Positions 7,771 through 53,123 of a stretch of DNA of 64,000 nt are shown piece after piece. The notes under the pieces are model-generated. The model was not told where the DNA came from and ran no database searches. It saw nothing but the letters and a program-made list of their open reading frames with translations. Every line of letters begins with the position of its first letter. The first letter of the stretch is position 1. Where the stretch lies: the NCBI GenBank assembly GCA_964016885.1, contig OZ024743.1:334242001-334306000 (forward strand), in the 5' to 3' direction. Made by a program: the position numbers and the translations under genes. Source of the stretch: Eledone cirrhosa. Lineage: Eukaryota.

Positions 7771-9148
7771 TTACTTCCACAATTTTAATAACTACAAACT
7801 TAGAAATTACTCAGAACTTTCGTTTAGAAATTGAAATTAATTTTGAAATAATTACAGGACATGTTCATACATTGAATATTTGTTGAACAAATGTTTACTA
7901 ATTTCATAATTAGAACGGTTGACATGTTAGAAATAACTGCAATGGTTCGATTAAATAATATTTTACTGTGTTAAAATGAGGAGAAAAATTTCAATAATGT
8001 TTGAATGAAATATGAGTGGTTAAAGCTGGCATATCTTTAATCACATGTTTTCTGGATCAGGTTTACACAAAAATAACCGCAGTAACTACACTCTTCAGCC
8101 ATTCTCAACAGAAGTTACATTCCCACCATTGCTATCCCGTATATTACCAATTATTACGACAGAGGAACAGTAATTATCCCCGCGCTAACAAAATCAACCA
8201 TGCCTGCATCCGCTTCTATTTCTTAAATCACTAGCTCTCCAACTCATCCTAGTCAAATATATTGTACAGTATAGTGGATACGTTTTCATGCTGAATATAT
8301 ACTACCACTTGAACTTCTATACTGATATAGTGTACGCATGCATGTATGTTTGTATATTTGTTTAAATTTATATGCAAATTATCTAATATGTTTGACCATA
8401 GATACATCGGTTGAAGAATCTGTACCTGTGTACGTGTATAAATGTTCTATATAAGCACGTCCCCTCATCGACTTAACTTCAGCTTCTCCCGAATTTTTCT
8501 GATAATATGCAAAATTTAACAATGTAGTGCAAGCTGGTGGATTACGTAATAATTCAAGTTTCGTACGCGATTACATAACTGCACAGAAACATGTGTTATA
8601 GATCTTATTGTATGTATAAATAAATGTGTCTTCGTACTTTAACATATTTTGCCTAGTTTTCCCTGATATTCTGTTTCTATCAAAAACAAAATTAGTTTTC
8701 GCTCAAGCATAGCGGATACGTAAATGCATTCGTGAGTTTTATATCGAATAATAATAATAATAATATTCAATTTATTTGCAAACAAACAGCCTCATAACGC
8801 TATGTGTTTTAGACGACTATCGTGATCCTTTTGTTCTAATGGTAGCAGAGAAAAACAATCGACAATTGTTATTGCCCTTTGTCAAGGTTGTGTATCACTC
8901 TTTTCTGTCTCACACTAGAACTCTTGAGATTAATTTTCAAACACATAGTGAGTAGCTACTTTGACAGGGTACACATAATATAAGGGAACTGTGATAATAT
9001 GGCAAAACCACAGTCAGTGTAATTGATATTGAGAATTAGTAAAGTTCAAAACCAAAGACAGGTTTTTTATTTAAAGATAATCAATTCTTTCTTCTATGTT
9101 GCTATCTATGATGAAAATGTTGCTAGATTATGTATGTATGTATGTGTG

Positions 9149-9561
9149 TTATCTCTTTCTCTTAATTTCGAGTATATTTTTTTGACCGGCCACCCTCCTG
9201 GTGGCAAGGCCATAAAAGAAAAGAAATTGTCATCCCTTGAATCGCAAGAATGTTTTGCAAATTTTGAAGGTGCCAGCTATCGCAGCCATTTGTAGACTAT
9301 GAATTAGGGAGCTGCGCTTTTTGTCCGCAAGTCCAAGTTCAGTCATACTTTGGTCCAAGTGGGTTGGTATATAACCCGTAGCTCCAATAATGATGGGTAT
9401 GAAGCTAAAGGTGTATCTTGGATACTGGATTTGTAAACTCCTCATCAATGGTCCGTAGATGTCCTCCTTCTCCTGTATTTTTCTGACAACGTTTACATCA
9501 AGTCGGCAGCTGATCTCCACAACAGAACACGTTTGCAATGTGTGGTCCCAAACAACAATAT
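9149..9561 (-). mobile_element. 5'-truncated R4/Dong-type LINE, family 1 (REL endonuclease end plus 3' UTR)
   Basis: Encodes TCSVVEISCRLDVNV...KICKTFLRFKG*, nearly identical to 52320-52720. Flanked on both sides by (TATG)n. Confidence 0.9.
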
Positions 9562-9624
9562 GTGTATGTATGTATGTATGTATGTATGTATGTATGTATG
9601 TATGTATGTATGTATGTATGTATG

Positions 9625-12600
9625 TTCTTCTGGTTTTATAATTTCACAAAGTTTTACCAATAGAGAGAGAGTTGGTTTCTGACATAGACACAAGACTCTC
9701 TCATTGGAATTTACACATCATCAACTAGGTAGATATGTATGTATGCATGCATGTGTAGATATGGATGTTATTGTATGTGTGGATGTGTGTTTTGAGTTGT
9801 ATATGCTTTGTATCTGTACATGTGTATATGCAGTTATTAGATGCAACATTTTTGGAATGTTTTACATATTTTTACTGTTCCATTAATGGATTGTACTTGT
9901 AATTTCCTAACTAGTTGTGTTCTTTCTGTTCCTGTGAAGCCTAGCTTCTCAAGATTTGTATTGAGGCAGTTACTAACATATCCCAGTGCCCCAATAATCA
10001 CAGGCATAAATCTGAAGGTGTAATCAGGGTGGAGTATCTGCAGATTTCTCATCAGTTCTGCATAAATATTCTCCTTTTCACAAATCTTTGATATTATATT
10101 GGCATCTGCTGGGCAGCTAATTTCCACTACTATGCATGTTTTCTTCTCCCTGTCCCATATCATAATATCTGGTCTGTTATGCCTGCATTTTATTGGGGTT
10201 TTTACTGGAACAATCCACCATTACTCTTTCATATTATGTACATGGATGTCTTCCACATTGTTGTAGCTTTTAATGTGTTTATCGGGGCTATCTTTTTTAC
10301 GAACTGCATTGTACAGTGTTTTGGCCACTATATCATGCCTCATAGGTAGATAGTACCGCGATGACTCTTTGGACAGCTGCTGATGACATGGGTCCTGATA
10401 TCACTGCTCTACACAAACACCAAAGCCTAAGTCCTGATATCACTGCTCTACACCAACACCAAAGCCCAAGTCATTACACCTGATGGGATGACAAAGTTCT
10501 TTGAGATACTGGCTGGTGTGCTCCAGGGAGATACATTGGCTCCCTACCTTTTTATCATCGTAGTGGACTATTGTATGCGCCTTGCACTGGAGAAACACCA
10601 GGACTCTGTAGCACCGGCTCGGAGCAGGAGAGTTAGGGCGAAAAAGGTATCGGATGCTGAATTTGCCGACGACATAGTTTTGGTGACAAATACAGTGAAG
10701 GAGGCAGAGGATTTGATGCGGGAGGTTGAGACTGTGTCGATGAGTGTGGGGCTGAGAATGAATGAGACTAAAACAAAATATCTTGTAGAGAATGTTGAGA
10801 AGCCAGAGGGGATCACTAATGTAGGCGGGAAGCCGCTAGAATTGGTTGAGGGCTTCCTGTATTTGGGAGCAAAGATTGGGAATACGGAAGATGATGTGGT
10901 TGAGAGGAAGAGCAAAGCCTAGGCGGCGTGCCACAGCTTGAGATCGGTGTGGAAGTCAGACCTTCGTAAATACCTGAAAATCCGCCTCTTCATTGCTGTA
11001 GTGGAGTCTGTGCTGCTGTATTGGTCTGAGACTTGGACATTGACCAAGAAACTCACTCAGATGGTGGATGGGTGCTACACGAGAATGCTGAGGATGGCTC
11101 TGAACATTAATCAGTATACACTGAGGATGAAAACCTCAGAGCTTTATGGGAGCATCCCAAAAGTCAGCTCAAAAGTGACACAGAGGAGACTGAGGTTAGC
11201 TGGACATGCTCACCGACATCCAGAGTTGACATTGCACTCAGTGCTCCTTTGGGAGCCCCTACATGGACACACTAGAAGAGGAAGACCAAGGTTAACGTAT
11301 GTTGATGCCCTAAGGACAGACACTGGTCTGTTGGAGACGCAGGACATGGCAGCGATAATGAGGGACAGAGACCGCTGGAGAGAACTCGTCCATGGATCTC
11401 GGAAATTTTACCCGCCTTAGATATCCTCGATGTTAGTTCTGCAGAGTCTACATTTGTTATCACATCTAGGTGTTTTGCCTGCATCCCTATCTCATTTCGT
11501 GCTAATCTCCTGTTCCTGGATTGCAAAAGCGTATCCTTCAAAGTGGGAGCCAATATAGCGGTTGTTGGTCCAAGATAAACTACTTTCCTTATCTATATTA
11601 CTCTCACTTTTGAGCTTCCTGGCAACATATCCATGCATGATTTTTTGCTGATAGGCATGCAGTTTTTCATCCATGGATTTACTGCGATACTGCTGAGCGA
11701 CATCCATGGGTGTGAGTTTTTGATTATCACACAGGGAATATCTCTCAAGGAGTTCCTTCCCAACTCTCATGATCTTATCTGTTTCATGCAGATAGACTTG
11801 CTCAAGAGACGGGCTCCTACGCTTCGAGATTCGTAGATGTTGTCGGAGAGATATGATGCGACATTCAAATGTTGTCTGGACTGATGTTAGGCCTCTGCCT
11901 CCCTGCTTACGTTTCACGTAAAGTGGTCTATCTCACTGTTGATGTGGAAGTTTCCAGTGTTGTCCAGTATTTTTCGAGTTCCAACATCAACTGCTCGGAT
12001 TTCGTCTATCGTCCAATTGAGTATTCCAAATGTTGGTGTTAGGACAGGCCCAGCAAACACATTGTGAACCACTGTTTTGTTTTGCGCAGAGAGTTCCGAT
12101 GACCAGATCTTTCTTAATCGTGTGTAGTATTCCCTGGTTACGCGTTCTTTATTACAGATACCATTATAGGATATGTTCTCATCTATCCCCAGGTATCTGT
12201 AGCAGTCCTCATCAGATATCGGTGAAACAGTTAGGCCATTGATGACAATGTTGCTAGATTGGGTTGTTGTTTTTCCCCGCTTTACAGTCATGTATGAGCA
12301 TTTATCTTGGCCAAACTCCATTCCTATATCCTTTGAGAACGTTGTAACCAGGTCAAGATTTTTCTTCATCCCATCCATGTTCTTGGCATAGAGTTTCAAA
12401 TCGTCCACAAAGAAATTATGGGTTAGGTTCGTATTTCTGTCCTACTGTGAGCCAATGATGTATCCCTCACATTTCTTGAGCAGAAAGGACAAGGGGTTTA
12501 ATGGCAAGATGAACAATATCACATAGAGACTGTCCCGCTGAAATATACCCCTGCAATATTTTATTTTATCAGTGAAAATAGAGTCCTTCTCCTCTGTCTT

Positions 12601-14545
12601 TAACCTTAGGATAGTAGCCCAAGAAGAAGACAGCCTCTATATGGCTCTGACAATAATGTCTGGGACTTTAGCAAGTTGGAGGGCCTCTATCATCCAAGAG
12701 TGGGGAACAGAATCGAAAGCTTTCCTGTAGTCAAGCCAGACTGTAGTCATATTCCTCCTAAGTTGTCGCACCTCCGACATCACAGTTTTGTTGATTAGGA
12801 GTTGTTCAGCACATCCCCAAACCCCTTTCTTTCCAGCTGCTTGTTCGTCTGTGATGATATTATTATTTTCACAGTGATCTTGGAGGAATAGGTTCAGGCA
12901 GGCTGTATAGATCTTATACATCAGGTTCTGGCATGCAATGGGTCGGTAGTTTTTTGCCAAGTAGGTGTCTTTGTTCTTTGGGACCACTAACGTTTGTGCT
13001 AATGTCAACCATTCTGGTATAAGTGTATCTCCCTTAAGAACTTGTTGGTAGAAGTCAGTAAGATAACTCCGATAGAATATTAGTTTTTTGTACCAGTAGC
13101 CGACAATCATGTCTCTTCCTGGTGTTTTCTTATCTTGGAGTTTTCCTATCACAAACTCAAGGGTACCCTCACTTATTTTGTATGTTTTTGTTGTAGTGTA
13201 GAAGCAATAGTTCTTTCAGATTTCTCTTAGCCACACTGCATCTTGGTTGAAATTCTTCTTTTGACGCCATATTTTTCTCCAAAAGGAATCTATGTCTTTC
13301 TGGGATGGGGCCTCAGAGACACTTATTATTTTGCCCTTCATATCTCTATAGACTGATGTTTGGTTTCGTCTGAATCTTTTATTAAGCATTTTTCTCTCAT
13401 CTACCTTCTTCAGGTATCGGCGTTTTTCGCTAACAGCTCTCAATTCTTGTTTGAGGGTGATCAGTTTATATTGGAGAGTTCTGGTTCTACTGTTACCAAA
13501 CATCGTCTCTATTTTATTTTTCACTCTTTGTTGGTGAGGAGTGAGGTTTTTTGTGTTTGTTTGCATGTAAGGAGCATTGTCACATATCCTATGTTTTTTC
13601 GTAGGTCACCACTCTTTTTTTCTATTTTAGTTACATATGATGGTATTTTTGGTGGTGTTTTGTTCTTGTTAATATCTCTGCTATCACCAAGATAATGCTT
13701 CACTGTCATTGCTGAGGCATATAAACAGGCGTTGATTTGCCAAAATGTTGGGGTTTTTATCCGTCGTAAATATTCATCCCCTATTTCGTCAATAACACGT
13801 AGTATTTCATTATTTGGTTTTTTATTCACCATTGTCGTTTTAACACGTTCAGCAAGAGACATATTTATACATGAGTTAATTTCTCTCTGGAAGATTTCGT
13901 TGAGGGAAATTTTCAATTGTTTATACTTTTGATTATCATTATCGATAGTATTTTCCACAACAGCGACCTGTAGCACGTGTTGTTGATAACATGTTTGTTG
14001 TGGGGGACTAACAATTAATAATATTTATCTTATTTTTACGTTCAACAAACGTCGCTTGTTGGCGTAATTGTTTCGCTGTGAAATAATTTAGCTCTGGGTG
14101 CATTTCGTCCCAGCGTAGCTTCATTCTATTCAAATAGCCAATGGAGGGATTGTTTTTTGCCATTTTATAACAATTAAATAAATCATCATTAAGTTCGCAA
14201 CTCCAAGAGAAATGCGATTTATAATTTCGGTTTCTTCTGTAGCTACAACTGAATAAAGTTTGATTACCTTCCTTGTTATTTGTCTTCGATACTTCCTTAA
14301 TTTTTTTGTTGATGTTGGTTTCAGCCATGCTGTTTGTAGCAAATCCTTGTAAAATGAATTATGTATTTAGTCGGATATCTCTACGAATTCGAATAAAATG
14401 TGTCTTCAGAAGGGATAGTTAGAAGAATAACCAGTTATTCAACCTGGTTGTAGTTGTGGCATTACTGTCGGAGATAGTATTCATCTTAAATTTAATAAAT
14501 AGTCTCCCAGGCCAAAATATGCGACTGATCGCGTTGACTGTCTAT
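9625..14545 (-). mobile_element. Near full-length, decayed R4/Dong-type LINE, family 2 (interrupted by an RTE insertion)
   Basis: Fragmented ORF with an N-terminal WSCELNDDL..Y..RMKLRWDEMHP domain, RT (NYRPIAC, WLDYRKAFDSVPHSW, FVDDLKLY), CCHC (CRLC..IEDITHVISSC) and REL (RPDIMIWD..VVEISCP). Both ends abut (TATG)n. Confidence 0.92.
10392..11420 (+). mobile_element. 5'-truncated RTE-clade LINE nested in the R4 family-2 element
   Basis: Encodes GVLQGDTLAPYLFII, EFADDIVL, FLYLG, KIRLFIAVVESVLLY.SETWTL, RRLRLAGH, RGRPRLTYVD. One in-frame stop at ~10920. Confidence 0.9.
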
Positions 14546-14562
14546 CTATGTATGTATGTATA

Positions 14563-14920
14563 TGCGCGGGGACATAGAATTAATCGAGCTGGATACCCGA
14601 TCGCGCGGTTAAACCACTGGGAGTGAAGGACCCTTAGCATTTGTCAGGGCATTCTTCTAGGAGAAGGCAACTCAGGAAACTGGGATAACTCCGATATAAA
14701 ACCTGCGACCCAGTAGTTACCGATGATGTTGATCTTTTCTTCTTTTCGGGTTATAGCTACTGTCGCTCAGAGAGTGGGATTGGCTCAGTGCACGGTCTTT
14801 CCTCACTTTAAAAAATATCTTTACGCACAGGCATTGCACGATAGCTTTAATTGATTACTATTAATAATGTTATATCGTGCAATGGCTATACTCGATAACG
14901 AGGGGACAACCATCATCATG
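14563..14920 (+). mobile_element. Non-autonomous RTE-derived element, type A (5'-truncated)
   Basis: RTE 5'UTR-like motif ttctaggagaaggcaactc, 3' hairpin ctcgataacgag, then a catcatg/(TATG)n tail. Repeated at 15599, 26321 and 52728. Confidence 0.8.
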
Positions 14921-14939
14921 TGGTATACATGTATGTGGG

Positions 14940-14971
<32 letters not shown>

Positions 14972-15005
14972 TGTATGTATGTATGTATGTATGTATGTAT
15001 GTATG

Positions 15006-15561
15006 TATGGTCGGGTCGTTGGCGACTAAACTGGCAACCCCACCAAGGTTTCTTGGTGAGGAGGGTGACTTTGGACATCCTGCAGGACTAAAAACAAAAC
15101 CTGTCAAAGGGCAAAGGAGCTCTTAAGAGTCAATGGCCATCCAAAATCACCGGGAGAGATGACCCCTTAGCCTTTGTCAAGGCAGAATTCTAGGAGAAGG
15201 AAAACTCTTATATAACACCTGCAACCCTGATGGTATCCAATGATGTTGACTTGTTCTTCTTTTTGGTAAATATCATCTTGGTTAAGAGAGTGGGACTGGC
15301 TTTGTGCAGTGCCTTTGCTCACTATAAAAGCTTCACGGCACAGGCATTGCTTTATATCTGGAGATCTCTCTGCACTTGTCATCACATGGTACCATGGGCC
15401 CAGCACTATGTGTCAATAATTGTCACAGGTGTAGTGTTTGTACCAGAGTTTTCAAGTCGCTGGCTGGACTAAAAAGTCACACTCGTTCAGCGCATCGGTA
15501 GGGGTTCTCCTACATGGATATAAAGTAGTGGCCGTACTCGAAAACGAGTTGGCAGCCACCA
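15006..15561 (+). mobile_element. Bipartite non-autonomous RTE element, type B
   Basis: RTE 5'UTR motif ttctaggagaaggaaaactct joined to an RTE ORF end (CSVCTRVFKSLAGLKSHTRSAH*), hairpin ctcgaaaacgag and a (TATG)n tail. Near-identical copies at 25672 and 26647. Confidence 0.85.
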
Positions 15562-15598
15562 TGTATGTATGTATGTATGTATCTATGTATGTATGTAT

Positions 15599-16131
15599 GT
15601 CGGGTCACTCTTGAGTGCTACTGGTAACGTGTAACCCAGTACGACCTGTCGCATGGTCGGGTCGTCGGCGACTAAACCGGCAACCTCACCAAGTTTCCTT
15701 GGTGAGGAGGGTGATTTAGGACACCCTGCAGGACAAAAAACAAAACCTGATAAAGGGCGGAAGAACTCATAAGAGTCAACGGCCATCCAAAGTGTGTAAA
15801 TATGTATATACACATGTACCGCGCGGTTAAACCACTGTGAGTGAAGGACCCCTAGCCTTTGTCAGGGCATTCTTCTAGGAGAAGGCAACTCAGGAAACTG
15901 GGATAACTCCGATATAAAATCTGCGGCTCAGTAGTTACCGATTATGTTGATCTTTTCTTCTTTTCGGGTTATAGCTACTGTCGCTCAGACAGTGGGATTG
16001 GCTCAATGCACAGTCTTTCCTCACTTTAAAAAATTCTTCTCGCACAGGTATTACACGATAGAATTAATTAGTAATTATTAATAATGGTATATTGTGCATT
16101 GGCTATACTCGATAACGAGGGGGCAGCCATC
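15599..16131 (+). mobile_element. Non-autonomous RTE-derived element, type A (apparently full 5' end)
   Basis: Starts gtcgggtcactc directly after (TATG)n, shares its head with type B, ends gggcagccatc-(ATGT)n. Confidence 0.82.
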
Positions 16132-16225
16132 ATGTATGTATGTATGTATGTATGTATGTATGTATGTATGTATGTATGTATGTATGTATGTATGTATGTA
16201 TGCATGTATGTATGCATGTATGTAT

Positions 16226-16935
16226 GGAATGATTTCATCACCACTGTCTCAGAAAGATTCTCGGTATCAAGTGGCTGATGCATGTGAGTGATGTTGAGGT
16301 CCTTGAGGGAAGTGAGTATCGGAGCATTGAAACTATCATCCACCAACGATGTTTGCGATGGACCGGACACCTCTGCAGAATGAAGGATGATCGAATCTCG
16401 TAACAACTTTTGTATGACAAGCTTTGTAAAGATAAGAGATCACCTCACAAAGCAAAGCTCTGATTCAATGATTGTGTAAAACAAACTGGTTTGATGGTGG
16501 CTGACTGGGAGATAGAAGTTCTTGAAAGAGAAACTTGTAGAGGAATGGTAAATGATGGGGTCCATAATTTTGAGGTCAGACGCATAGAGCACGAGACGAT
16601 CAAACGGGATGTGCGTAAGCAATGCCCAGGTGTATCTCTCGAAACGACAATTGTCTCCATTTAATAGGTGTGCCCTGAGTGGGGAAAGATTTGCTTGAGC
16701 AAATCTGGTCTCAGGATCCACAGTTGCAGCTATGTTCAAAGAGAAGCAGTGAACTATGATCTCTAGGGTATTGTGAAGGTTCACAGGTAATCTGATTCAA
16801 GACCTTAGGACAGGGAGATCCATAGTTGTTGTCAGTGTGCGAAGGAGTGCTAGTCTCTAGCAGGTTTGAAAAGCCATATCCGAGCGTCACACATCTGTAT
16901 CTGACAAGCGATTACAATACTCTTAGTAGAGAGTG
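16226..16935 (+). mobile_element. 5'-truncated, decayed RTE (BovB-like) LINE 3' end with C2H2 fingers
   Basis: Translates to FHHHCLRKILGIKW...LRWTGHLCRMKDDRI..QLLY...CPECGKICLSKSGLRIH-like...SLAGLKSHIRASH (with frameshifts). Bounded by (TATG)n on both sides. Confidence 0.8.
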
Positions 16936-16962
16936 TATGTGTGTATGTATGTATGTATATTG

Positions 16963-17481
16963 TGTCAGGTCACTCTTCAGCGCTATTGGTAACATGTAAC
17001 CTAGTACAACTTGTGCATGGTCAGTTCGTCGGCGAATAAACCGGCAGCCCCGCCAAGCTTGCTTGGTGTGGAGGGTGATTTTGGATACCTTGCGGGATGA
17101 AAAACAAAACCCATAAAAGGGCGGAGGAATTCAGGTGAGTCAACGGCTATCCAATAAAATTTTTTGTGGAGCGAGAGACTCCTAGTCTTCATTAAGACAT
17201 CTCTATGAGAAGGTCACTCTGATATAAAATCTGCGACTTCGATTGCATCCAGTGATGTAGGCCAGTTCTTATTTTGGGGCAAATGCATTCAATGTTCAGA
17301 GAGTGAGATTGGTCCCGTGCAGAGCCTTTCCTCACTTATAAAAACTTCAAGCATAGGCATCGCTTGATATGTGACATTTTGTGCAATGCATGGTAGTGCT
17401 AGCCATAGGCAAGTCCCTAGCAAGACGTGCTTATGAATCAAGCGATGGCATTACTCGAAATCGTGTTGCTGGCATCATCAT
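16963..17481 (+). mobile_element. Older diverged member of the RTE-derived non-autonomous family
   Basis: Same gtcaggtcactc...gctattggtaac head, 3' hairpin ctcgaaatcgtg and catcatc-(ATGT)n tail. Confidence 0.7.
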
Positions 17482-17586
17482 GTATGTATGTATGTATGTA
17501 TGTATGTATGTATGTATGTATGTATGTATGTATGTATGTAGTAATTATGAGCATGTGTGTGTATGGATGTATGTATGCATCAAAGC

Positions 17587-18011: not shown

Positions 18012-18294
18012 TCTATCTATCTATCTATCTATTTAGTTACCTATTTAAACCTGCGTGAAAAGTGAAATAAAATAGGAAATGTTATAAAAATTTGTGAAAC
18101 ATCATTCTGGTTATCACATTCTCTTGAAATAGGAGAGATAATTAAAAAATACAAGATGAAAGATAAAAGGTTCTGCATTGTAGGCCATAAAACCTCGGAA
18201 TGTTCTGTGAAAGCTGTAATGACAGCCGAAATAATTATCTGAGAATCAAATAAAATAACGATTGACAAGACTGAAAACGAATTGAATCACTTAC

Positions 18295-18709
18295 CTCGGG
18301 TGGTATTCTTGTTCCGCATAACGACGCTATACCCAATATAATGATTGGTACCCAACAGAAGAAATCGGTGAGTACAATCAGAGTGATACGTTTTGCCAAA
18401 CCACTGTCCGTCTTAGTCTCTGCTGTTGTCACTGCACTTCTGGTCTCTCTGGCTACGATAAACATCCAAAGATATGATATGAAAATGACCACGAAAGAGA
18501 GCAGATTGACAGCCAGGAAGATCATGACGGAGTACTCCCATCCGCGGGGGCGATCAGGAGTGATATGGAGTGCAAGACAAACACCTGACCTGCTGTAGAA
18601 ATCTTTGAAATAGTTTAGACCAAATAATGGCAGGGCAGACAGAAAAAATACGAAGATCCATAATACAAACATTGCGAGTTGGGCTTCTCTTAAACCCATT
18701 CGATGGGAC
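18295..18709 (-). CDS. Exon of the same GPCR, TM4-ECL2-TM5-TM6
   Basis: Acceptor ttttttttag|G and donor GAG|gtaagt. Encodes ...FYSRSGVCLALHIT...GWEYS...LAKRITLIVLTDFFCWVPIIILGI...IPPE. 415 bp, in frame with both neighbouring exons. Confidence 0.95.
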
Positions 18710-19774
18710 CTAAAAAAAAGAAGTCAAAACAGTTACAGAAATATAAGAATATTTAAAACAAAATTAGCACGATTTGATTTCAGTAGTCAGAGTGTTGTTT
18801 ATCTTCGTTCAGACGAGGAGACTATATTTGATCGAGTGAATAGGTCACAGAACAACCAACTGAATAATGTCTCTAGGATTTGACCAAGCAATTAAAAATA
18901 TAATAGATGAGCTGATGCAGCAGTTGTTAAGTCGATACATATTTACGTAAGCTTCAATTACTATGAGTGCTTCGTTGACTGGCAAAGAGAGGATAATTTC
19001 CACCTACAGAAAATGCTTTTTACGAGTTCAACGACCCATTCAGAATATGTGTATCCTATTTCCTCAATGGTATAGAAAAACACGGGTGTTTATTGGCTTG
19101 CTTTATTTACTTTCTTTGCTAAATGTAGGAGAGTAAAGAAATCTCAAATATCTTGGTGTATCAGTATTTCAGTGTGCAGTAGCTACGTCATATGTCTTCT
19201 ATCGTAGACTCAAGTCTTCAAAGGCCTTATAAGTGAAATGTCAGACGAAAAGTGTGATGAAGCCCGCCAGGAGGACGTTCCTCATCCTTGCTTGGAAAAT
19301 GTAATCTACTATCCGGTTTATTATTAGCATTGTGCTTTAGGTACCTTTTGTTTACAACCATTGAATGCAAGCCTCTTCTCTGAGAACTATCCACTTAGTG
19401 GTCTTGGAGGCCGTGAAAAAGTTTCAGGGCATTTCCTATCTCTATTATTTAGTTATAAAAAGTAAAATAAATTTCTATTGCATTTCAATAGCAGACAGTT
19501 TAGCATAACTTGCTAAAGAATCAAAATTCCAGGTACTATAAGAAAACAGATTTTAAAAATATAGAATCTGGATAGAATAATATTAGCTTCATAATATTCG
19601 TAATTTCTGGGATAGTAGGACATATACTCAATAAAAGAGATAAACCTGATAACAACTTGATAAAAGAAACCATTAATATTTTCGTAGGGGCATATGTTTG
19701 AATATGTTGATGGAAAAGGTATGGATAAATGGAAGTAATGGCTCAGAAAAAAAAACTATGTAAGTTTAACTCAC

Positions 19775-24479: not shown

Positions 24480-24960
24480 TGTGTGGGTGTGCGTGTGTGT
24501 GTGTGTGTGTGCGTGTGTGTGAGTGTGTGTGTGTGCGTGTGTGTGTATGCGCGTGTGTGTGTGGGTGTGTGAGAGAGAGAGAGTGTGTGTGTGTGTGCGC
24601 GTGTGTGTGAGTGTGTGTGTGTGTGTGTGCGTGTGTGTGTATGCGCGCGTGTGTGTGAGTGTGTGTGTGTGTGCGTGCGTGCGTCTGTGTGCATTTATGT
24701 GTGTATGTATGTATGTGTGTATACGTGTGAGTATGTATGCATATATGTATGTACATATGTATGATTATATGTATGTGTGTGTGTATGTATGTATGTATGT
24801 ATTTATGTATGTATATATATATATATGGATATGTGTATGTATGTGTTTATGTATGTATATATATATATGCGTGTGTCTATGTATGTATGTATGTATGTAT
24901 GTATGTATGTATGTATATATGTATGTATATATGTATGTTTGTATGTATGTGAGTATGTAT
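24480..24960. repeat. (GT)n/(TATG)n compound microsatellite
   Basis: Directly visible. Confidence 0.95.
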
Positions 24961-24961
24961 G

Positions 24962-25142
24962 TTGGCTGTATCGGTAGAGGGTTGGACGCCATGCTTTCTA
25001 GCATAGTTACGTTCCTTTACGGTCTGAGTTAAAATCCCGTCGAGGTTAATTTTGCCTTTCATCCTTACGGGGTCGATAAAATAAAATACCAGTAATGCAC
25101 TGGAGTAATTGCTGGCCTTGTGCCAAAAGTAGAAACAATTAC
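24962..25142 (+). mobile_element. Nin-core tRNA-SINE
   Basis: Same family as 5480-5662. Confidence 0.85.
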
Positions 25143-25617
25143 TTTATACATTTTTACCAATAGAGAGGCGGTTTCTAACATATACAAAAGACTTTCGTTG
25201 GAATTTAGACAACATCAACTAGGTAAATTTGTATGTATGTGTGTGTGTGTATGCAGGTATGTATTGGATGTTATTGTATCTGTGGATCTGTGAATCTGTA
25301 TGCTTTGAGTCATATGTGTGCATGTACATATACTTTGTATCTGTACATGTATATATGCAGTTACTACATTCAGAATATTTGGAATGAATTACATAGATTA
25401 CATACTGTTCCATTAATGGATTGTACTAGTAACTTCCTAACTAGTTGTATTCGTTCTGGTTCTGTGAATCCCATCTTTTGAATATATGTCGAGGCAGTCA
25501 GAAACATATCCCAAATCTCCAATGATTACAGGCATAAATCTGAAGGTATAGTCAGGGTGGAGTATCTGTAGTTTCCTCATTAGTTCTGCGTATACGTTCT
25601 GTTTTTCGGCAATCTTT
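25143..25617 (-). mobile_element. 5'-truncated R4/Dong family-2 LINE
   Basis: Encodes KIAEKQNVYAELMRKLQILHPDYTFRFMPVIIG, with a 3'UTR matching 9650-9840. The 5' junction lies in (TATG)n. Confidence 0.85.
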
Positions 25618-25671
25618 ATGTATGTATGTATGTATGTATGTATGTATGTATGTATGTATGTATGTATGTAT

Positions 25672-26281
25672 GTCAGGTCACCAGTTGGTGCTACTGGTAA
25701 CATGTATCCCAGTACAACCTGTCCCATGGTCGGGTCGTTGGCGACTAAACTGGCAACCCCACCAAGGTTTCTTGGTGAGGAGGGTGACTTTGGACATCCT
25801 GCAGGACTAAAAACAAAACCTGTCAAAGGGCAAAGGAGCTCTTAAGAGTCAATGGCCATCCAAAATCACCGGGAGAGATGACCCCTTAGCCTTTGTCAAG
25901 GCAGAATTCTAGGAGAAGGAAAACTCTGATATAACACCTGCAACCCTGATGGTATCCAATGATGTTGACTTGTTCTTCTTTTTGGTAAATATCATCTTGG
26001 TTAAGAGAGTGGGACTGGCTTTGTGCAGTGCCTTTGCTCACTATAAAAGCTTCACGGCACAGGCATTGCTTTATATCTGGAGATCTCTCTGCACTTGTCG
26101 TCACATGGTACCATGGGCCCTGCACTATGTGTCAGTAATTGTCACAAGTGTAGTGTTTGTACCAGAGTTTTCAAGTCGCTGGCTGGACTAAAAAGTCACA
26201 CTCGTTCAGCGCATCGGTAGGGGTTCTCCTACATGGATATAAAGTAGTGGCCGTACTCGAAAACGAGTTGGCAGCCACCAT
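25672..26281 (+). mobile_element. Bipartite non-autonomous RTE element, type B (full head)
   Basis: Near-identical to 15006-15561; flanked by (TATG)n. Confidence 0.85.
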
Positions 26282-26320: not shown

Positions 26321-26619
26321 TGTTATCCCAGTTTCCTGAGTTGCCTTCTCCTAGAAGAATGCCCTGACAAAGGCTAAGGGTCCTTCACTCCGATATAAAC
26401 CCTGCGACTCAGTAGTTACCGATGGTGTTGATCGTTTCTTCTTTTGGGGTTATAGCTACTGTCGCTCAGAGTGTGGGGTTGGCTCAGTGCACAGTCTTTC
26501 CTCACTTTAAAAATATCTTCACACACAGGCATTACACGATGGAGTTAATTAATAATTATTAATAATGGTATATCGTGCAATGGCCATACTCGATAACGAG
26601 GCGGCAGCCATCATCATGT
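26321..26619 (+). mobile_element. RTE-derived type A element with an inverted 5' segment
   Basis: 26321-26391 is the reverse complement of the type A segment ggagtgaagg...gggataac; the rest is in sense orientation. Confidence 0.8.
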
Positions 26620-26646: not shown

Positions 26647-27248
26647 TCCACTTGGTGCTACTGGTAACATGTATCCCAGTACAACCTGTCTCATGGTCGG
26701 GTCGTTGGCGACTAAACTGGCAACCCCACCAAGGTTTCTTGGTGAGGAGGGTGACTTTGGACATCCTGCAGGACTAAAAACAAAACCTGTCGAAGGGCAA
26801 AGGAGCTCTTAAGAGTCAATGGCCATCCAAAATCACTGGGAGAGATGACCCCTTAGCCTTTGTCAAGGCAGAATTCTAAGAGAAGGAAAACTCTGATATA
26901 ACACCTGCAACCCTGATGGTATCCAATGATGTTGACTTGTTCTTCTTTTTGGTAAATATCATCTTGGTTAAGAGAGTGGGACTGGCTTTGTGCAGTGCCT
27001 TTGCTCACTATAAAAGCTTCACAGCACAGGCATTGCTTTATATCTGGAGATCTCTCTGCACTTATCGTCACATGGTACCATGGGCCCAGCACTATGTGTC
27101 AATAATTGTCACAAGTGTAGTGTTTGTACCAGAGTTTTCAAGTCGCTGGCTGGACTAAAAAGTCACACTCGTTCAGCGCATCGTTAGGGGTTCTCCTACA
27201 TGGATATAAAGTAGTGGCCGTACTCGAAAACGAGTTGGCAGCCACCAT
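26647..27248 (+). mobile_element. Bipartite non-autonomous RTE element, type B
   Basis: Near-identical to 25672-26281, with a (TATG)n tail. Confidence 0.85.
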
Positions 27249-27317
27249 GTATGTATGTATGTATGTATGTATGTATGTATGTATGTATGTATGTATGTAT
27301 GTATGTATGTATGTATT

Positions 27318-27982
27318 TTAATGTGTGGTCCCAAACAATTACATCTAGCCGGTTGTGTTTTAATTTCGTGGCTGTTTTTATTTTGAGTGTATATATCTAT
27401 GTCTTATCTCCTAGTTTTACTTTAATTTTTATTAATTTCTCACCAGCAGAGGAGCCGATTACTAATACAGAAGCAAGACAGTTTCAATGGAATTTAAATA
27501 ACATTAACTAAGTAATTATGTATGTACGTCAGTTTGTCTAGTACTGGGGTTAATTCTTCTTCTATATCTCTTTTTCACTTCCTCTCTCTTACTCTCTATC
27601 CTTCTCTGGTATAAATCTGCTGTATTCAGACCTGGAGAGGAGACGGCCTTCACCAGATTTAATAAATTACCCAGAAAGGTCGTATGTCAATACGGCGCCT
27701 CTACGACTCCCTCGAGAGATACAGGCCCATGCAAGCATATGCAGTTATTATATGCTAAATGTCTGGAATGATTTATATAATTCTACAGTACTTGCAATGC
27801 CTAATTAACCGTACTGATTTGTGTTGAGGCAGTAAGTTATCCAAGCACTCAAATGATCACAAGTACAAATCTAAAGTTTCCATCATTAATTAGGTATATA
27901 TATTCTCGTTTTAGCAAATATTTAACTTTATCTTAACATCTAATGGGCAGCTGATTTCATCACTGTGGTGCATACCTTTATT
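27318..27982 (-). mobile_element. Old, scrambled R4/Dong fragments
   Basis: 27318-27385 encodes KIKTATKLKHNRLDVIVWDHTLK; ~27410-27530 resembles the family-2 3'UTR; ~27900-27980 encodes EISCPLDVKI. Confidence 0.6.
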
Positions 27983-28208
27983 TGTATGTATGTATGTATG
28001 TATGTATGTATGTATGTATGTATGTATGTATGTATGTATGTATGTATGTATGTATGTATGTATGTATGCATGCATGTATGTATGTATGTATGTATGTATG
28101 TATGTATGTATGTATGTATGTATGTATGTATGTATGTATGTATGTATGCATGCATGCATGCATGTATGTATGTATGTATGTATGTATGTATGTATGTATG
28201 TATGTATG

Positions 28209-29072
28209 TTATCTCTTTCTCTTAATTTCGAGTATATTTTTTTTGACCGGCCACCTTCCTGGTGGCAAGGTTGTAAAAGAAAAGAAATTGTCATCCCTTG
28301 AATCGCAAGAATGTTTTGCAAATTTTGAAGGTGCCAGCTATCGCAGCCATTTGTAGACTATGAATTAGGGAGCTGCACTCTTTGTCCGCAAATCCAAGTT
28401 CAGTCATACTTTGGTCCAAGCGGGTTGGTATATAACCCGTAGCTCCAATAATGATGGGCATGAAGCTAAAGGTGTATCTTGGATACTGGATTTGTAAACT
28501 CCTCATCAATGGTCCGTAGATGTCCTCCTTCGCCTGTATTTTTCTGACAACGTTTACATCAAGTGGGCAGCTGATCTCCACAACAGAACACGTTTTCAAT
28601 GTGTGGTCCCAAACAACAATATCAGGCCGGTTGTGCTTTAATAGGTGGCAGTTTTTATTTTCAGGTTCCACCAGTATTCCTTAGTGCCATCTGTCTCAAT
28701 ATATTCTTCCTCGTTTGTTGTTAATTTTGTTTTCCGAAGTGCGTTCCAGATGGTTCTAGCTATCCCATCGTGTCTCATGGGGAGGTAGTAGCGAGATGAC
28801 ATTCTTTCGCAGCTGGCAACAATGTAGCTTACATCCTCGATCTTTGTTTTACATAACCTACATTTATTGTCAGCTGATGGCCCTCCCTTTTTGTGCAGCA
28901 GATATTTGGTGGGGAGTTCTTGCTCCTGTATTTCATAGAGATATCCCTCAAGGTGTGATGTCATAAACTTGTTGGAACTCCATGCCAGGCTTTTTGAGTA
29001 GTTTATCCCCTCAATGGTCTGTGTTTTACGTCTCAAGTATCCATGCACAACTTTTTCTGTAAATTGGTCAAT
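28209..29072 (-). mobile_element. 5'-truncated R4/Dong family-1 LINE
   Basis: Near-identical to 51866-52720 (HGYLRRK...CRLC...HNRPDIVVWD...EISCP...FKG*). (TATG)n on both sides. Confidence 0.93.
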
Positions 29073-29193: not shown

Positions 29194-29228
29194 TTCTGGT
29201 TTTATAATTTTATACATTTTTACAAATC

Positions 29229-29315
<87 letters not shown>

Positions 29316-29460
29316 GGTTTCTAACATAGATACAAGACTCATTGTAATTTACACAACATCAACTAGGTAGATGTGTATGCATGTATGCATGCATGTGTGT
29401 GCAGGTATGGATGTTACTGTATGTGTGGATGTGTATGTTTTGAGTTATATGTGTGCATTT
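29194..29460 (-). mobile_element. R4 family-2 3'UTR fragment with an expanded (GA)n tract
   Basis: Matches 9625-9810, where the GA run is only about 5 units long. Confidence 0.75.
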
Positions 29461-29844
29461 GCTGAATTTATGTCCCTTATGAATTTTGATATAAATACGC
29501 CATTGCATATAAGATTTTGCTTTTTCTATCTTTATCTTTTCTATATATTCTTGAAATAAAATAATAGTAAATGAATTATTCAGAAATATATTTACATACT
29601 CATAAATTGATAAACTCCCAGAATATTTCTGTACTGTTCTGAAACGCATTCATTTCTTTGATCTTTCCTTATAAATTGTATAATATTGTTTCGAAAGACA
29701 ATACATATCATAATAAAAACTCAAGTATAGAACTAAAAATCGTCAATTTAATCACTCAAAAATTATGCAGTCACATTTAGCAAACATTGGCATGAACATT
29801 ATAATTGTTAGAAATGTTATTTATTGATTCGTTTTTCCTCAATA

Positions 29845-34975: not shown

Positions 34976-35036
34976 ATTTTTTTTAATATAAGGAACTGTT
35001 TCTTTGTTTATTCATTATTTTATTAATTTATATATA

Positions 35037-47500: not shown

Positions 47501-47965
47501 GTATGTCATATGCACAGTAGCTAGAGAGTTATCTCCTTGTCGTATGACATATGCACAGTAGCTAGAGAGTTATCTCCTTGTCGCATGTCATATGCACAGT
47601 AGCTAGAGAGTTATCTCCTTCTCGTATGACATATGCACAGTAGTTAGAGAGTTATCTCCTTGTTGTATGACATATGCACAGTAGCTAGAGAATTATATCC
47701 TTGTCGTATGACATATGCACAGTACCTAGAGAGTTATCTCCTTGTCGTATGACATATGCAGAGTAGCTAGAGAGTCATCTCCCTGTCGTATGACATATGC
47801 ACAGTAGCTAGAGAATTATCTCCTTGTCGTATGACATATGCACAGTAGCTAGAGAGTTATCTCCTTGTCGTATGACATATGCACAGTAGCTAGAGAGTTA
47901 TCTCCTTGTCGTATGACATATGCACAGTAGCTAGAGAGTTATCTCCTTGTCGTATGACATATGCA
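35596..47965. repeat. 41-bp satellite array, ~12.4 kb (~300 units) with higher-order duplications
   Basis: Consensus ttatctccttgtcgtatgacatatgcacagtagctagagag with recurring variant strings and no spacers. Confidence 0.98.
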
Positions 47966-48300: not shown

Positions 48301-48505
48301 CTCTCACTCTCTCTCCTTCTCAGTTGTGTTTAGACCTTGAGAGTGATGGCTTCCACAGGTTTAAAGTACCCAAGAAATGTCGTATATCACTACCGCGCCC
48401 CTACGATTACATCAGGTGTTGCGTGTCCATACATACACACATACATACATACATACATACATACATACATACATACATACATACATACATACATACATAC
48501 ATACA

Positions 48506-51500
48506 ATAGCGACCGTTGTGGTCAGTGTCCGATAATCGGACGTGTGTAATTACGGCTTACATGAAGGCAACATACCATATATTGGAAAAAGTTGAGCTAC
48601 ATTACGCGGTAAGATTACATACAATAATTCTACATAAGTGTTTTAACTGTAAGTGTGTTGTAAAACACCTATTTATATGAACGATACATACACTTATGAT
48701 ATATGAACGATACATACACTTTAACATATAAATGCAACGTTGTTATATTACATTTATAAAGAAATATAAAGTAACGTTTTCGATTCAGAAACAAAAACAT
48801 AAGTGTTTGAACGGTGAATATGTTGTGAATAAGTTGTAGAACACCTATTTATATGAATGATACATAAACTTTAACATATAAATACAGCGTTGTTATATTA
48901 TGTTACATTCATAAAGAAATATACTAAGTAACGGTTCTTTTTGTTCTCGATTCAAACGATTCAAGAACAACGTTTAAAACACAGTTGTAGAATTAAAAAC
49001 TAACTGAAAAGAAATATTACCCAAGCTGTGAATAACTTTAAATTAGATTCAGACAGAATTTTGTCGAAACTTTTAAAGAAGATCATCGACTATTTTGAAA
49101 AATAAATACGAAATATTTGTGAATAGACGAACTCATCATGGCAAAAAGTACAAGTCTCCTTCGACCAAATCGCAACTACAACCGTTGTATACAGTGGAGC
49201 TACGAGCTTAACAAAGTATTATATGAAACATACAAACAATCTGAACCCCAAAAGTTCGGTTTTATGCAAAGGCTAAAAACTTTATGGAACTCCAAACACT
49301 CAGAATTAGACTTTTCTCCAAAGCATTTAAATGAACAGGCAAAACGTATCATCAGATGTAAATTGATACATCTAACGGAATTGAGTGATACTACAAATAC
49401 AGCCCTTGTAGACAACCACCCCACCTCCACTGACAGACAAAGAGAATGGCCAGCTAAATCTAACAGTGAACAGCTCACCAACAATTTTGCTGAAATCCAT
49501 CCCACTTCTACTGAAGAACAGCGAGAAGGTCAGCTAACTCTAGTAGTAATTGTCACCACATCAACAACGAGGCTGAAATTCATGAGTCCACTGAACAAAC
49601 AGAGCACCAAAAACTTGTGGACACCCTACAAGTGACATGGAACGATATGTTTCAAGAGATACACAGCCTTAATGTGAGTGACAGACCATACAACACCAGA
49701 ATCAGTAAAGAACCCACTAAATTGGAATTGGAAGCGGTGAATGAAATAGCTGGCAATTATCTGAAGGCTATACGATCTAAAGGTGTAGAAACGACATTTG
49801 AAACGCTTAATGTTTTGTTATATGTTTCAGCTGTTACATTGCTATCATATAACACACATCTAAAACCACGCAATCAAGATACAAACAGAAAGCCTGAACC
49901 AGCGTGGATACGAAATTTAAAAACCAAAATTTTGTCCCTAAGACGAAGTATCTCACACATCGCAGTCGTTATGAAATGCAACATAGAGAGCAACTTCACA
50001 CGACACCAGGAAGACCTAAAGAAAAAGTTAGAGAGACGATTTGGAGATACAAAATTTAAAACTTTGAACTCCAAATTACACCAGTTGAAACAACAACTCA
50101 CAGCTACAACAGAAAGACTAAAATATAAGTCAACAGCACATAAACGACAAGTGCTAAATAGATTGTTTGCCAGAGATCCTAAATCAGTTTATCGCAGCTT
50201 CGGTGGCAAAAGCTCAATCCCTGTAAACGACACCCCTTCAAAAGAACAGGTTGAGAGCTACTGGTGATCTGTATGGGAAACGGATGAGGGATTCAACAGA
50301 CAAGCTTATTGGCTAAAAGAACTGGAACAGGACTACTGCCAACATGTCCAGATAAAACAATATGTCATAGATGGGTCAATACTGGAAACAGCTCTACAGA
50401 AAATGTCGAATAGGAAATCGCCAGGCCCAGACCTCATTACAGGATACTGGTTGAAGAATTTTCACTTTTTATCGGCAAGATCTCATACGGCTGTTTACAG
50501 AAACCATTAAAGGCACACAAGAACTGCCCAGATGGTTATCAACTGCCACTACTCTCCTCATTCCCCAAAATAGCCAAACCACCCTTGCTAAAAATTACCG
50601 CCCAATAGCCTGCCAAAACATCATGTATAAATTATATACTGGGTGCCTTAACCTGTTCTTACAGGATCACTGTGCTACCAACAACATCATAACACCTGAG
50701 CAAGCTGGTGGAAAGAGGGAGGTGTGGGGTTGCATAGATCACCTACTAACTAACAAAATGATTCAGGAAAAAACAACAAAGAATCGCAGAAACATGACTG
50801 TGGTGTGGCTGGACTATCAAAAAGCATTTGATAGTGTACCTCATGGGTGGATTATTAAGGCTTTACAGTTAGCTAAAGTCCCACAACAATTGGTAGCTGC
50901 TGTTGAACGCCTGACCAAGAACTGGTACACCAGTTTGATCCTTAGAGGTGAGAAGGAGCAAGTTAAGACTGATAAGATACATTACCAGAAGGGCATCTTT
51001 CAGGGTGATAGCTTGTCAGTGCTACTCTTCGTTCTCTCACTGAATCCACTACCTTACCTACTCAGGAAACAAGGTGGACAAAGAAGTGGGCTCAGAAGTA
51101 TCTCCCATCTTTTCTTTGTTGATGACCTGAAGTTGTATGGGCCAAATATCAATGACATCAAGAAACAATTGGACCTCATTACACAATTTTCAACCGACAT
51201 CAAAATGAAATTTGGTGAGTCCAAGTGTGCATATTTGGCAATAAAACGTGGAAGAGCTGTGATCTCCTCTAGAAATCTAGAGATGAACAGCCTGACAATA
51301 CAACCTCTGCAGTCAGGTGACAACTACAGATATCTTGGACAGGATGAGAATGTCAGATATGATGAACAGACAAATAAGGAGAGAACCAGAACTGAATACC
51401 TCAGAAGAGTAAAGAAAATATGGTCATCAGAACTGTCAGCATACAACAAATACATTGCCCACAATACTTATGCTGTGCCAATTCTAACGCCAACATTTGG

Positions 51501-52720
51501 CCTGCTGAACTGGTCATTGCAAGAACTAAGTGAGATGGATGTTAGAACTTGAAAACTTCTCAGTGTTACTGGGAACTTTAACATCAATGGTGATGTGGAT
51601 AGGCTATACTTCTCACGCAAGGAAGGTGGCCGGGGTCTAAAATCAATATTAATAACATATGAGACCCGGATAGTAACACTGAAGCAACACCTTCAACAGA
51701 GGAAAAAGGTTGGCAACCATCTTGCCCAGGTTTATGAGCATGAAAAAAAATATATCATTAGAATAGCGACTGATCTGGAGGAGAGATATGGAATAAAGCC
51801 TGATATAAATCTCTCACCCAGAGAAATCGGAAGATCCTATTCAATGTTCAAACAAGATTAAAAAATTGACCAATTTACAGAAAAAGTTGTGCATGGATAC
51901 TTGAGGCGTAAAACACAGACCATAGAGGGGATAAACCACTCAAAAAGTCTGGCATGGAGTTCCGACAAGTTTATGACATCACACCTTGAGGGATATCTCT
52001 ATGCAATACAGGAACAAGAACTCCCTACCAAATATCTGCTGCACAAAAGAGGAGGGCCAGCAGCTGACAATAAATGTAGGCTATGTAAAACAAAGATAGA
52101 GGATGTAAGCTACATTGTTGCCAGCTGCGAAAGAATGTCATTTCGCTATTACCTCCCCATGAGACACGATGGGATAGCTAGAACCATCTGGAACGCACTT
52201 CGGAAAACAAAATTAACAACAAACGAGGAAGAATATATTGAGACAGATAGCACTAAGGAATACTGGTGGAACCTGAAAATAAAATCTGCCACCAAATTAA
52301 AGCACAACCGGCCTGATATTGTTGTTTGGGACCACACATTGAAAACGTGTTCTGTTGTGGAGATCAGCTGCCCACTTGATGTCAGAAAAATACAGGAGAA
52401 GGAGGACATCTACGAACCACTGATGAGGAGTTTACAAATCCAGTATCCAAGATACACCTTTAGCTTCATACCCATCATTATTGGAGCTACGGGTTATATA
52501 CCAACCCGCTTGGACCAAAGTATGACTGAACTTGGATTTGCGGACAAAAAGCGCAGCTCCCTAATTCATAGTCTACAAATGGCTGCGATAGCTGGCAACT
52601 TCAAAATTTGCAAAACATTCTTGCGATTCAAGGGATGACAATTTCTTTTCCTTTACAACCTTGCCACCAGGAAGATGGCCGGTCAAAAAATATACTTGAA
52701 ATTAAGAGAAAGAGATATAA
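48506..52720 (+). mobile_element. Near full-length R4/Dong-type LINE, family 1 (single ORF 49138-52638, broken by a few stops and frameshifts)
   Basis: N-terminal WSYELNKVLY..RLKTLW domain, RT (YRPIAC, WLDYQKAFDSVPHGW, QGDSLS, FVDDLKLY, YRYLG), CRLC..C knuckle and REL (HNRPDIVVWD..VEISCP). Preceded by (CATA)n and followed by catacata. Confidence 0.95.
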
Positions 52721-52727
52721 CATACAT

Positions 52728-53015
52728 AATGGCTTCCCCCTCATTATCGAGTATGGCCATTGCACGATTTAACATTTTTTTTTATTGAGCCGCCTGTTTT
52801 ATATCGGAGTTATCCCAGTTTCCTGAGTTGCCTTCTAAAAGAATGCCCTGACGAAGGCTAGGGGTTTTTCACTCCCAGTGGTTTAACCACGCGATCGGGT
52901 ATCCAGCCTGACTATTTCTATGTCCCCGCGCATGTAAATACATATGTACATACATATTTACAGACTTTTGGATGGCTGTTGACTCTTATGAGTTCTTCCG
53001 CCCTTTGTCAGGTTT
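52728..53015 (-). mobile_element. RTE-derived type A element (minus strand) whose tail hosts the R4 LINE
   Basis: Reverse complement of the type A 3' end (atactcgataatgagggggaagccat-tatgtatg) and body. Confidence 0.8.
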
Positions 53016-53042
53016 ACACACATACATACATATATACATACA

Positions 53043-53123
53043 TGAACTTGGATTTGTAGACAAAGAGCGTAGCTCCCTAATTCATAGTCTACAAATGGCT
53101 GCGATAGCTGGCACCTTCAAAAT
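53043..53123 (+). mobile_element. Tiny R4 family-1 fragment cut off by the satellite
   Basis: Encodes ELGFVDKERSSLIHSLQMAAIAGTFK; starts in (CATA)n and stops where the 22-bp array begins. Confidence 0.85.

Follow-up and report, generated by a model that had tools for sequence, protein, structure and literature searches.

R4-type LINEs targeting (CATA)n and RTE-type elements of opposite orientation share microsatellite nests in the genome of Eledone cirrhosa

Several families of long interspersed nuclear elements (LINEs) insert into microsatellites. The published target of Dong is (TAA)n (PMC7998251, PMC3812793); Waldo (WaldoAg1, WaldoAg2 and WaldoFs1), of the R1 clade, targets ACAY microsatellites (PMC3812793), and Togen, which is related to NeSL, targets (TG)n (PMC4640811). 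In octopus, LINEs of the Dong-R4 and RTE groups are known to be numerous and to have been active recently, their targets going unnamed in the passages of the reports that describe them (PMC13282606, PMC8967140, PMC9115989). RTE elements of Lepidoptera have been reported as microsatellite progenitors (PMC2887409), and a microsatellite 3' untranslated region (UTR) has been noted in an octopus RTE (PMC9115989). Herein, we analysed 64,000 nucleotides of Eledone cirrhosa (GCA_964016885.1, contig OZ024743.1, positions 334,242,001 to 334,306,000; hereafter the window), from a genome of 3.0 Gb with 36% GC. The window was compared with itself and annotated against single genomic copies, which delimited three nests at 9129-17540, 24700-29460 and 48430-53123, in which two R4-type LINE families, R4a and R4b, and a group of RTE-type elements surround (TATG)n tracts. 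We report that the (CATA)n-targeting R4 is a real, new target variant and that the RTE family uses the same target from the other strand. It is likely that the two groups insert independently into pre-existing tracts and nick opposite strands, with their fixed opposite orientations as the result.

In the window, all seven R4 copies recognised by an earlier sequence-only reading had at least one junction in the repeat with (CATA)n on the sense strand, as that reading had stated. Both junctions lay in the repeat in the copies at 9149, 9625, 28209 and 48506, the 5' junction alone at 25143 and 53043, and the 3' junction alone at 29194. Where the microsatellite flips, at 48430-53120, the R4 and RTE groups were both confirmed to flip with it. 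A larger set of R4 junctions was assembled from four sources, namely the 30 loci that best matched R4a, 99 evenly spaced stretches of 10 kb, the first 30 matches to the R4b 3' end and the first 30 to the R4b 5' end with 16 extensions, after duplicates and the window's own locus had been taken out. The baseline consisted of 139 evenly spaced 10-kb stretches of the genome (1.39 Mb), from which 20,000 random 40-nt windows were classified by a rule near-identical to the junction rule; about 2.7% were CATA-class, about 2.7% TATG-class, 9.3% TA and 85% other. On the sense strand, CATA was present at 90 of 106 R4 5' junctions, with TATG at 3 (two of which were inverted pieces) and other sequence at 13, and at 89 of 105 3' junctions, with TATG at none. 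The random 5' flanks that would speak against an R4 specific for TATG/CATA in fixed orientation were thus not found, and that proposal of the earlier reading stands.

A CATA-rich 5' flank was seen in 30 of 30 full-length R4b copies. Given that the R4 5' junctions are spread over many truncation points and still carry CATA, the repeat is the target and not the element's own tail; the possibility that CATA is merely such a tail was rejected on the ground that it appears at 5' junctions whatever the truncation point. The 3' phase of R4b was near-fixed, with an AAYAYAY continuation at 4,733 of 5,410 ends genome-wide, and CATA/CACA was entered within 9 nt of the 3' end in 40 of 43 R4a and 53 of 56 R4b copies. 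R4a and R4b therefore carry the target repeat at both junctions in fixed orientation, 5'-truncated copies included, as a sequence-specific LINE does. Dong in the strict sense is defined by a (TAA)n target, and the CATA counts given above show another repeat at the junctions of both families: they behave in the manner of Dong without being its TAA-specific form. At one locus (L248), the 5' flank of an R4b copy adjoins a (CTTA)n tract and the CATA stretch is merely short, hinting that R4b tolerates the (CTTA)n target of its relatives.

R4a and R4b have an RT (reverse transcriptase) identity of 56%. Copies were counted by exact end patterns over the whole genome, and the R4 figures are lower bounds, namely at least 4,604 R4a 3' ends, at least 5,410 R4b 3' ends and at least 517 R4b 5' starts. 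RVT_1 was matched by R4a (6e-25) and also by R4b, and both families have at the C-terminus what we take to be an RPD...E motif. The best PDB matches of the R4 family profile were R2 proteins, through to the C-terminus (5e-48). The zf-RVT match was below the cut-off, the copy at 48506 reading C-x2-C-x8-Y-x4-C with Y where H is expected, and no Exo_endo_phos (apurinic/apyrimidinic (AP) endonuclease) hit was obtained in the R4a pieces, in R4b or in the intact relatives. These relatives (L308 and L309) have single open reading frames (ORFs) of 1,153-1,165 aa. R4-clade elements are known for a divergent N-terminal Myb/SANT domain (PMC7998251) and a 5' HDV-like ribozyme (hepatitis delta virus; PMC3774820). 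The N-terminal frame, once translated, gave no Pfam hit, and the full-length R4b copies have a precise 5' start in common.

Like Dong (Bombyx Dong, DongAg, DongBg and ostracod Dong1/2), R4a and R4b combine a single ORF, an RT and a C-terminal restriction-like domain with microsatellite-specific insertion, and they differ from it in their (CATA)n target and separate RT subclade in a quick tree. The ACAY target of Waldo belongs to the same repeat class as (CATA)n; however, Waldo is an insect AP-endonuclease element, and since neither the R4a pieces nor their intact relatives gave an AP-endonuclease hit, the shared target is likely convergent. Togen and some HERO families are, like R4a and R4b, LINEs with a restriction-like endonuclease that target microsatellites, although they belong to other clades and use other repeats.

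The closest named relative of the RT of the window's LINE was an Argonauta hians protein (65%). In the quick maximum-likelihood tree of 45 RT rows, R4a, R4b, L308-L311 and L314 fell in one 20-row group with a Shimodaira-Hasegawa-like approximate likelihood ratio (SH-aLRT) support of 100, and this group stood apart from the TAA-flanked types. The tree was rooted at its midpoint; the 44 rows besides R4a came from R4a searches or from this genome, and they include TAA-flanked Dong-like elements, with neither a named Dong/R4 reference nor an outgroup. From these sequences, R4a and R4b would belong to a distinct RT subclade. R4a and R4b do not form a group of their own, and a single clade of R4a, R4b and the Argonauta protein was rejected by the approximately unbiased (AU) test (p 0.0002), a value that is optimistic because the hypothesis was framed after the first tree was seen. 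A short interspersed nuclear element (SINE) of 180 bp interrupts R4b at nine loci (L171, L175, L225, L226, L248, L250, L254, L255 and L265), eight of the nine interruptions falling within R4b positions 711-923 and some at an identical position, which suggests a hotspot or an inherited sub-lineage.

TAA-flanked Dong-like elements, of two families or more, are also present in this genome (L044, L061, L074, L085, L213 and L295), and they form their own tandem nests in (TAA)n. Of 80 metagenome loci, most of those in which the C-terminus could be seen terminate in (TAA)n-like repeats. The three closest metagenome relatives with visible flanks abut (CTTA)n, at both ends in L309 (1-100 and 4822-4869), at the 5' end in L308 (1-56) and at the 3' end in L311 (4651-4694); L310 and L314 have no flank visible. 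Tracts of (CTTA)n numbered 0, against 84 of ATAC, in the 1.39-Mb sample, and this absence would fit a shift of R4 to the tetranucleotide offered by the host. No R4 targeting CATA, TATG or CTTA was found in the literature searched, a search outside which Repbase, Dfam and subscription papers lay. We consider it quite possible, though somewhat less likely than not, that a widespread and undescribed R4 sub-lineage left TAA for (CWTA)n, that an RTE family of this genome convergently came to use those tracts from the other strand, and that the resulting two-enzyme landing pad multiplies itself by splitting and duplicating. Here (CWTA)n would comprise (CATA)n in this genome and, among other animals, (CTTA)n, with two deeply separate families that are not placed in one clade. 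If true, it would provide a natural high-copy system in which to map how two endonuclease types read one repeat. The determinants of specificity in the R4 clade are poorly known, a divergent Myb-like domain being the only one proposed (PMC7998251). A series of targets (TAA, CTTA and CATA), of which TAA and CATA are used within one genome, and the existence of near-intact relatives open target switching to direct tests by nicking assays and domain swaps, and this bears on the retargeting of R2-like insertion enzymes.

The RTE-type elements of the nests include E1, E2 and E3, which are non-coding and 0.35-0.6 kb long. E2 is the commonest (24,549 copies by its 3'-end pattern), and the E1 3'-end pattern had 5,661 matches. 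Among the first 30 E1-pattern loci, the upstream sequence differed in 15, where it was T/ATT-rich, and 13 of the 15 were an autonomous LINE, RTE-A, with AP endonuclease, RT and C2H2 fingers, which we take to be of the RTE clade from its architecture and resemblance. In one copy (L388), a single frame of 801 aa encodes both RVT_1 and Exo_endo_phos (7.5e-12); the contiguous locus L200 adds the C2H2 fingers, and the two loci together look like a nearly intact ORF. Four RTE-A copies (L388, L389, L390 and L393) also have sequence in common ahead of the point where the E1 match begins, although it is inverted in L389; the true 5' end of RTE-A may lie further upstream. E1 matched the RTE-A 5' UTR at 92.6% over 309 bp, in four of eight upstream stretches, and has the 3' approximately 40 nt in common with RTE-A, so that E1 is a bipartite RTE derivative. 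The RTE origin previously proposed for E1 is thereby borne out. The location of R4 and RTE elements on opposite strands and their multi-kb nests, also proposed, are supported as well. Bipartite RTE derivatives (Bov-A, RTESINE and WALLSI3, and the RTE-derived half of the Ceph domain) have been described (PMC5786205); E1 resembles Bov-A, RTESINE and WALLSI3 in that an RTE 5' UTR piece is joined to the 3' end of the same LINE. Unlike the published elements, the RTE-type elements of this genome have a strong polar preference for TA/TATG tracts (33 of 41 5' junctions). E2 and E3 matched the RTE-A 5' UTR at 69-72%, and no longer coding copy of E2, as an autonomous partner, was present among the first 30 E2 loci. 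RTEx, another RT-encoding LINE family, ends in GATA/TA-like repeats, and several of its copies have a common internal start (L043, L070, L089 and L125).

Each of the nine RTE-type copies listed in the window has a TATG-type repeat on both sides, with weaker 3' sides at 52728 (about two units) and at 14563 (an imperfect start). The claim that these elements start within TATG and end in it is accordingly sound for the window, but it did not extend to the whole genome: of the 24,549 E2 3' ends, 8,188 (33%) are followed by ATGTATG and 9,562 (39%) by ATATA. A microsatellite was scored in the 5' flank of 35 of 43 E2 copies (TATG 22, TA 9, CATA 2, TG 1 and CA 1), and the 5' and 3' tracts of the 43 copies were of equal length (median 39 vs 42 nt, p 0.92). 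In 99 E2 copies, the flank types on the two sides agreed (odds ratio 17.9, p 2e-6). Directly after the element, 14 of these 99 showed imperfect, locus-specific, AT-initial duplications of 8-18 nt, compared with 2.9 after shuffling (p 0.001); 48 had pure-repeat duplications, which are uninformative, and 37 had none. The RTE elements end at about CACC(AT) or in (CAT)n, with (CAT)1-3 in E1, E3 and RTE-A. Collectively, the lack of a fixed tail, the equal tracts and the locus-specific duplications indicate that the sequence after an RTE element is mostly target. TATG as a fixed RTE tail was rejected on the mixture of TATG and TA after E2 and on the target duplications, and a fixed, family-specific repeat tail that is absent from the 5' flank, as expected of a microsatellite progenitor, was not what these elements showed. 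As in the lepidopteran RTEs, the 3' ends are tied to simple repeats; here, however, the repeat after E2 is mostly target. In the published signature of RTE, a stretch of T precedes the duplication by one helical turn on its upstream side (PMC6007223). What passes for the 'microsatellite tail' of an RTE element can belong to the target, a caution for marker design and for the building of consensus sequences.

The 5' junctions in the 139 stretches were TATG 18, TA 15, other 8 and CATA 0 for the RTE-type elements (n=41), and TA 4 and other 11 for RTEx (n=15). Accumulation near CA repeats has been proposed for Drosophila Waldo-A/B (PMC3812793), and one could suppose likewise that insertion is untargeted and that copies persist or become concentrated where microsatellites abound, or that breakage and repair make the junctions. 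We regard such passive accumulation as very improbable, since it is contradicted by the polarity on both sides (CATA over TATG at R4 5' junctions, TATG over CATA at those of RTE), gives no account of the fixed R4 3' phase, and leaves the TAA-type Dong of the same genome sitting in TAA and not in CATA.

The sequence-only reading had further proposed that RTE tails build the microsatellite and thereby feed R4, and RTE and R4 were therefore compared for adjacency. Over the intervening tract, 31 of 105 R4 3' ends faced an RTE 3' end and 29 of 106 R4 5' ends faced an RTE 5' side (p 0.76); the neighbours were in opposite orientation in 60 of 61 cases. A further count, with overlapping loci kept in, gave 40 tail-to-tail and 50 head-to-head pairs. 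These symmetric counts showed no tail-side excess of R4 near RTE. For comparison, baseline tracts of at least 3 perfect units (n=109, after 8 at an edge or of mixed orientation were dropped) were examined and are referred to as loose; those of at least 5 units (n=30, 4 dropped) are the long pure tracts. Of the 109 loose tracts, 13 had an RTE 3' end upstream and 17 an RTE 5' side downstream, with the wrong orientation in none; the corresponding numbers for the 30 long pure tracts were 5 and 15.

Divergence from the family majority was 1.4-1.9% for E2, 2.2% for RTE-A, 2.7-3.0% for R4b, 3.5% for E1 and 6.2% for the SINE, and 1.2% for R4a, a value biased low by best-hit selection. E2 was less diverged than R4b (p 6e-4), and many RTE copies thus probably arrived after their R4 neighbour. 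E2 copies with R4 in their tail were no older than other E2 copies (n=10 vs 90, p 0.99). Collinear interruptions, considered as a clock for the order of insertion, numbered 12, namely 11 by the SINE and one by RTEx in R4b; as none placed R4 in an E element or an E element in R4, the insertion order is read from divergence.

Independent insertion into pre-existing tracts has to be weighed against several observations that do not favour it. A 3' tract without a scored 5' tract was found in 7 of 43 E2 copies (the reverse in 3 of 43), so that some tail growth is possible. R4 3' tracts met an RTE tail more often than loose tracts did (p 0.002). E1 is as diverged as R4b and more diverged than R4a, and R4 can consequently have followed E1. 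In the paired age test, which was underpowered, E2 had the lower divergence in 7 of 9 pairs lying tail to tail (p 0.18). Moreover, the R4 samples are best hits or first matches along contig C1 and hence non-random, and the 5'-side RTE counts may be inflated, given that 3' ends were called per family and that the 5' head is common to families.

Could RTE then synthesise (TATG)n tails that are the main source of targets for R4 and for further RTE? The report on lepidopteran progenitors (PMC2887409), the roughly threefold commoner RTE tails at R4 3' tracts than at loose tracts and the E2 copies without a scored 5' tract would agree with it. Against long pure tracts, the enrichment of R4 3' tracts for RTE tails was not significant (31/105 vs 5/30, p 0.24), so that the enrichment over loose tracts remains as a point for the earlier reading. 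A fixed TATG tail is lacking and the target duplications start at the element's end; E2 5' tracts are as long as 3' tracts and the R4-RTE adjacency is symmetric; just 13 of the 109 loose and 5 of the 30 long pure tracts begin at an RTE 3' end; and the divergence of E2 is below that of R4b. On these grounds we find tail synthesis an improbable main source, and the self-reinforcing coupling, or symbiosis, of builder and user is not supported. A weak form of the idea does occur, in that repeats of the RTE-A 3' UTR are used as targets: this UTR holds internal TG/TA/ATT repeats, which, by eye and at one of 15 loci each, host a TAA-type Dong (L213) and E2 (L190).

A mixed course, in which the tracts pre-exist and RTE read-through repeat from the donor locus steers insertion and adds units, materially lengthening and purifying the tracts that R4 prefers, is also unlikely. 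It would draw on the proposal that RTE 3' repeats steer cleavage or priming (PMC6007223) and on the RTE neighbours at 17 of 30 long pure tracts compared with 26 of 109 loose ones, and it predicts the agreement of the E2 5' and 3' flank types as well. Nevertheless, E2 3' tracts are no longer than 5' tracts, and pure tracts adjoin RTE 5' ends over 3' ends (15 vs 5 of 30).

The reading that fits best is that the nests are landing pads common to both groups, which likely nick them on opposite strands. The observations relevant to the mechanism are the polarity, the 3' phase, the duplications and the symmetry of adjacency. From what is established for target-primed reverse transcription, the restriction-like endonuclease of R4 would nick the TATG-reading strand and prime reverse transcription there, and the AP endonuclease of RTE likely nicks the CATA/TA-reading strand; nicking of opposite strands would therefore set the opposite orientations of R4 and RTE. 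Pairing of an RNA-terminal CAU with the target probably aids RTE priming, in line with the published model (PMC6007223; see also PMC13295347). With every insertion, one tract would become two and a short duplication would be gained, so that nests can grow through shared targeting and need no builder. Part of the genome's repeat architecture would thus be explained, with at least 10,000 R4 and 30,000 RTE-type insertions in one repeat class.

Table 1. Repeat tracts and R4- and RTE-type elements of the window (positions counted from its first nucleotide)
Feature	Position	Strand	Remarks
(TATG)n tract, 3' flank of R4a fragment	9129..9149		
R4a, 5'-truncated	9150..9561	-	94% to the copy at 48506; CATA at 5' and 3' junctions
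(TATG)15 tract, common to R4a 5' and R4b 3' junctions	9563..9625		
R4b, near full-length, broken	9624..14540	-	94-97% to L251, ~200 bp short of L251; RVT_1; copy split by RTEx
RTEx, 3' fragment of another RT-encoding LINE family	10433..11419	+	Inside R4b; GATA-like site, no TATG junction
E1, short form, bipartite RTE-A derivative (5' UTR piece and 3' terminal ~40 nt)	14553..14916	+	
E2, 5'-truncated, non-autonomous RTE-type, C2H2-finger coding remnant	15007..15560	+	
E1, long form: E2-type head, internal TA/TATG repeat, RTE-A 5' UTR piece, RTE-A 3' end	15600..16132	+	
RTE-B 3' fragment, further RTE-type family, TATG on both sides	16227..16932	+	Putative clade, from end and position
E3, older RTE-type non-autonomous, (CAT)n end	16963..17479	+	
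Impure (TATG)n tract, start of second nest	24696..24962		
R4b-like, diverged 3' fragment	25143..25617	-	79%; 5' junction CATA, 3' end abuts SINE
E2, full length, reference copy	25673..26279	+	
E1, 5'-truncated, with 70-bp 5' inversion	26322..26614	+	
E2, near full length	26648..27246	+	
R4-like degenerate piece, absent from the sequence-only list	27317..27985	-	CATA at both junctions
R4a, 5'-truncated	28209..29072	-	95%; CATA at 5' and 3' junctions
R4b 3' UTR fragment	29194..29461	-	CATA solely at 3' junction
(CATA)n tract on + strand, flipped orientation	48428..48505		
R4a, full-length, 4.2 kb	48506..52720	+	ORF broken by frameshifts and stop codons; motifs of RT, zinc-knuckle-like and C-terminal RPD/E type
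E1, internally deleted, tail-to-tail with R4a	52726..53015	-	
R4a fragment, 81 bp	53043..53123	+	CATA at 5' junction; runs into 22-bp satellite

The interval that separates the first nest from the second contains, on the minus strand at 18235-18723 and 19771-20136, a pair of exons from a seven-transmembrane receptor of the rhodopsin family (7tm_1), which presumably resemble leucine-rich-repeat G-protein-coupled receptors. A splice donor near 18295 suggests further downstream exons, so that the nests may be intronic. A young inverted-repeat structure at 30069-35031, with arms of 480-880 bp at 99%, surrounds a 304-aa ORF at 33215-34129 on the minus strand; this ORF gave no Pfam hit, and we take it to resemble a Penelope-type GIY-YIG C-terminus. 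A 41-bp satellite occupies 35596-47965 (about 303 copies, 93% matches), and a 22-bp satellite of about 490 copies, in which TATG-like words are abundant, extends over 53122-64000 and begins exactly where the 81-bp R4a fragment ends.

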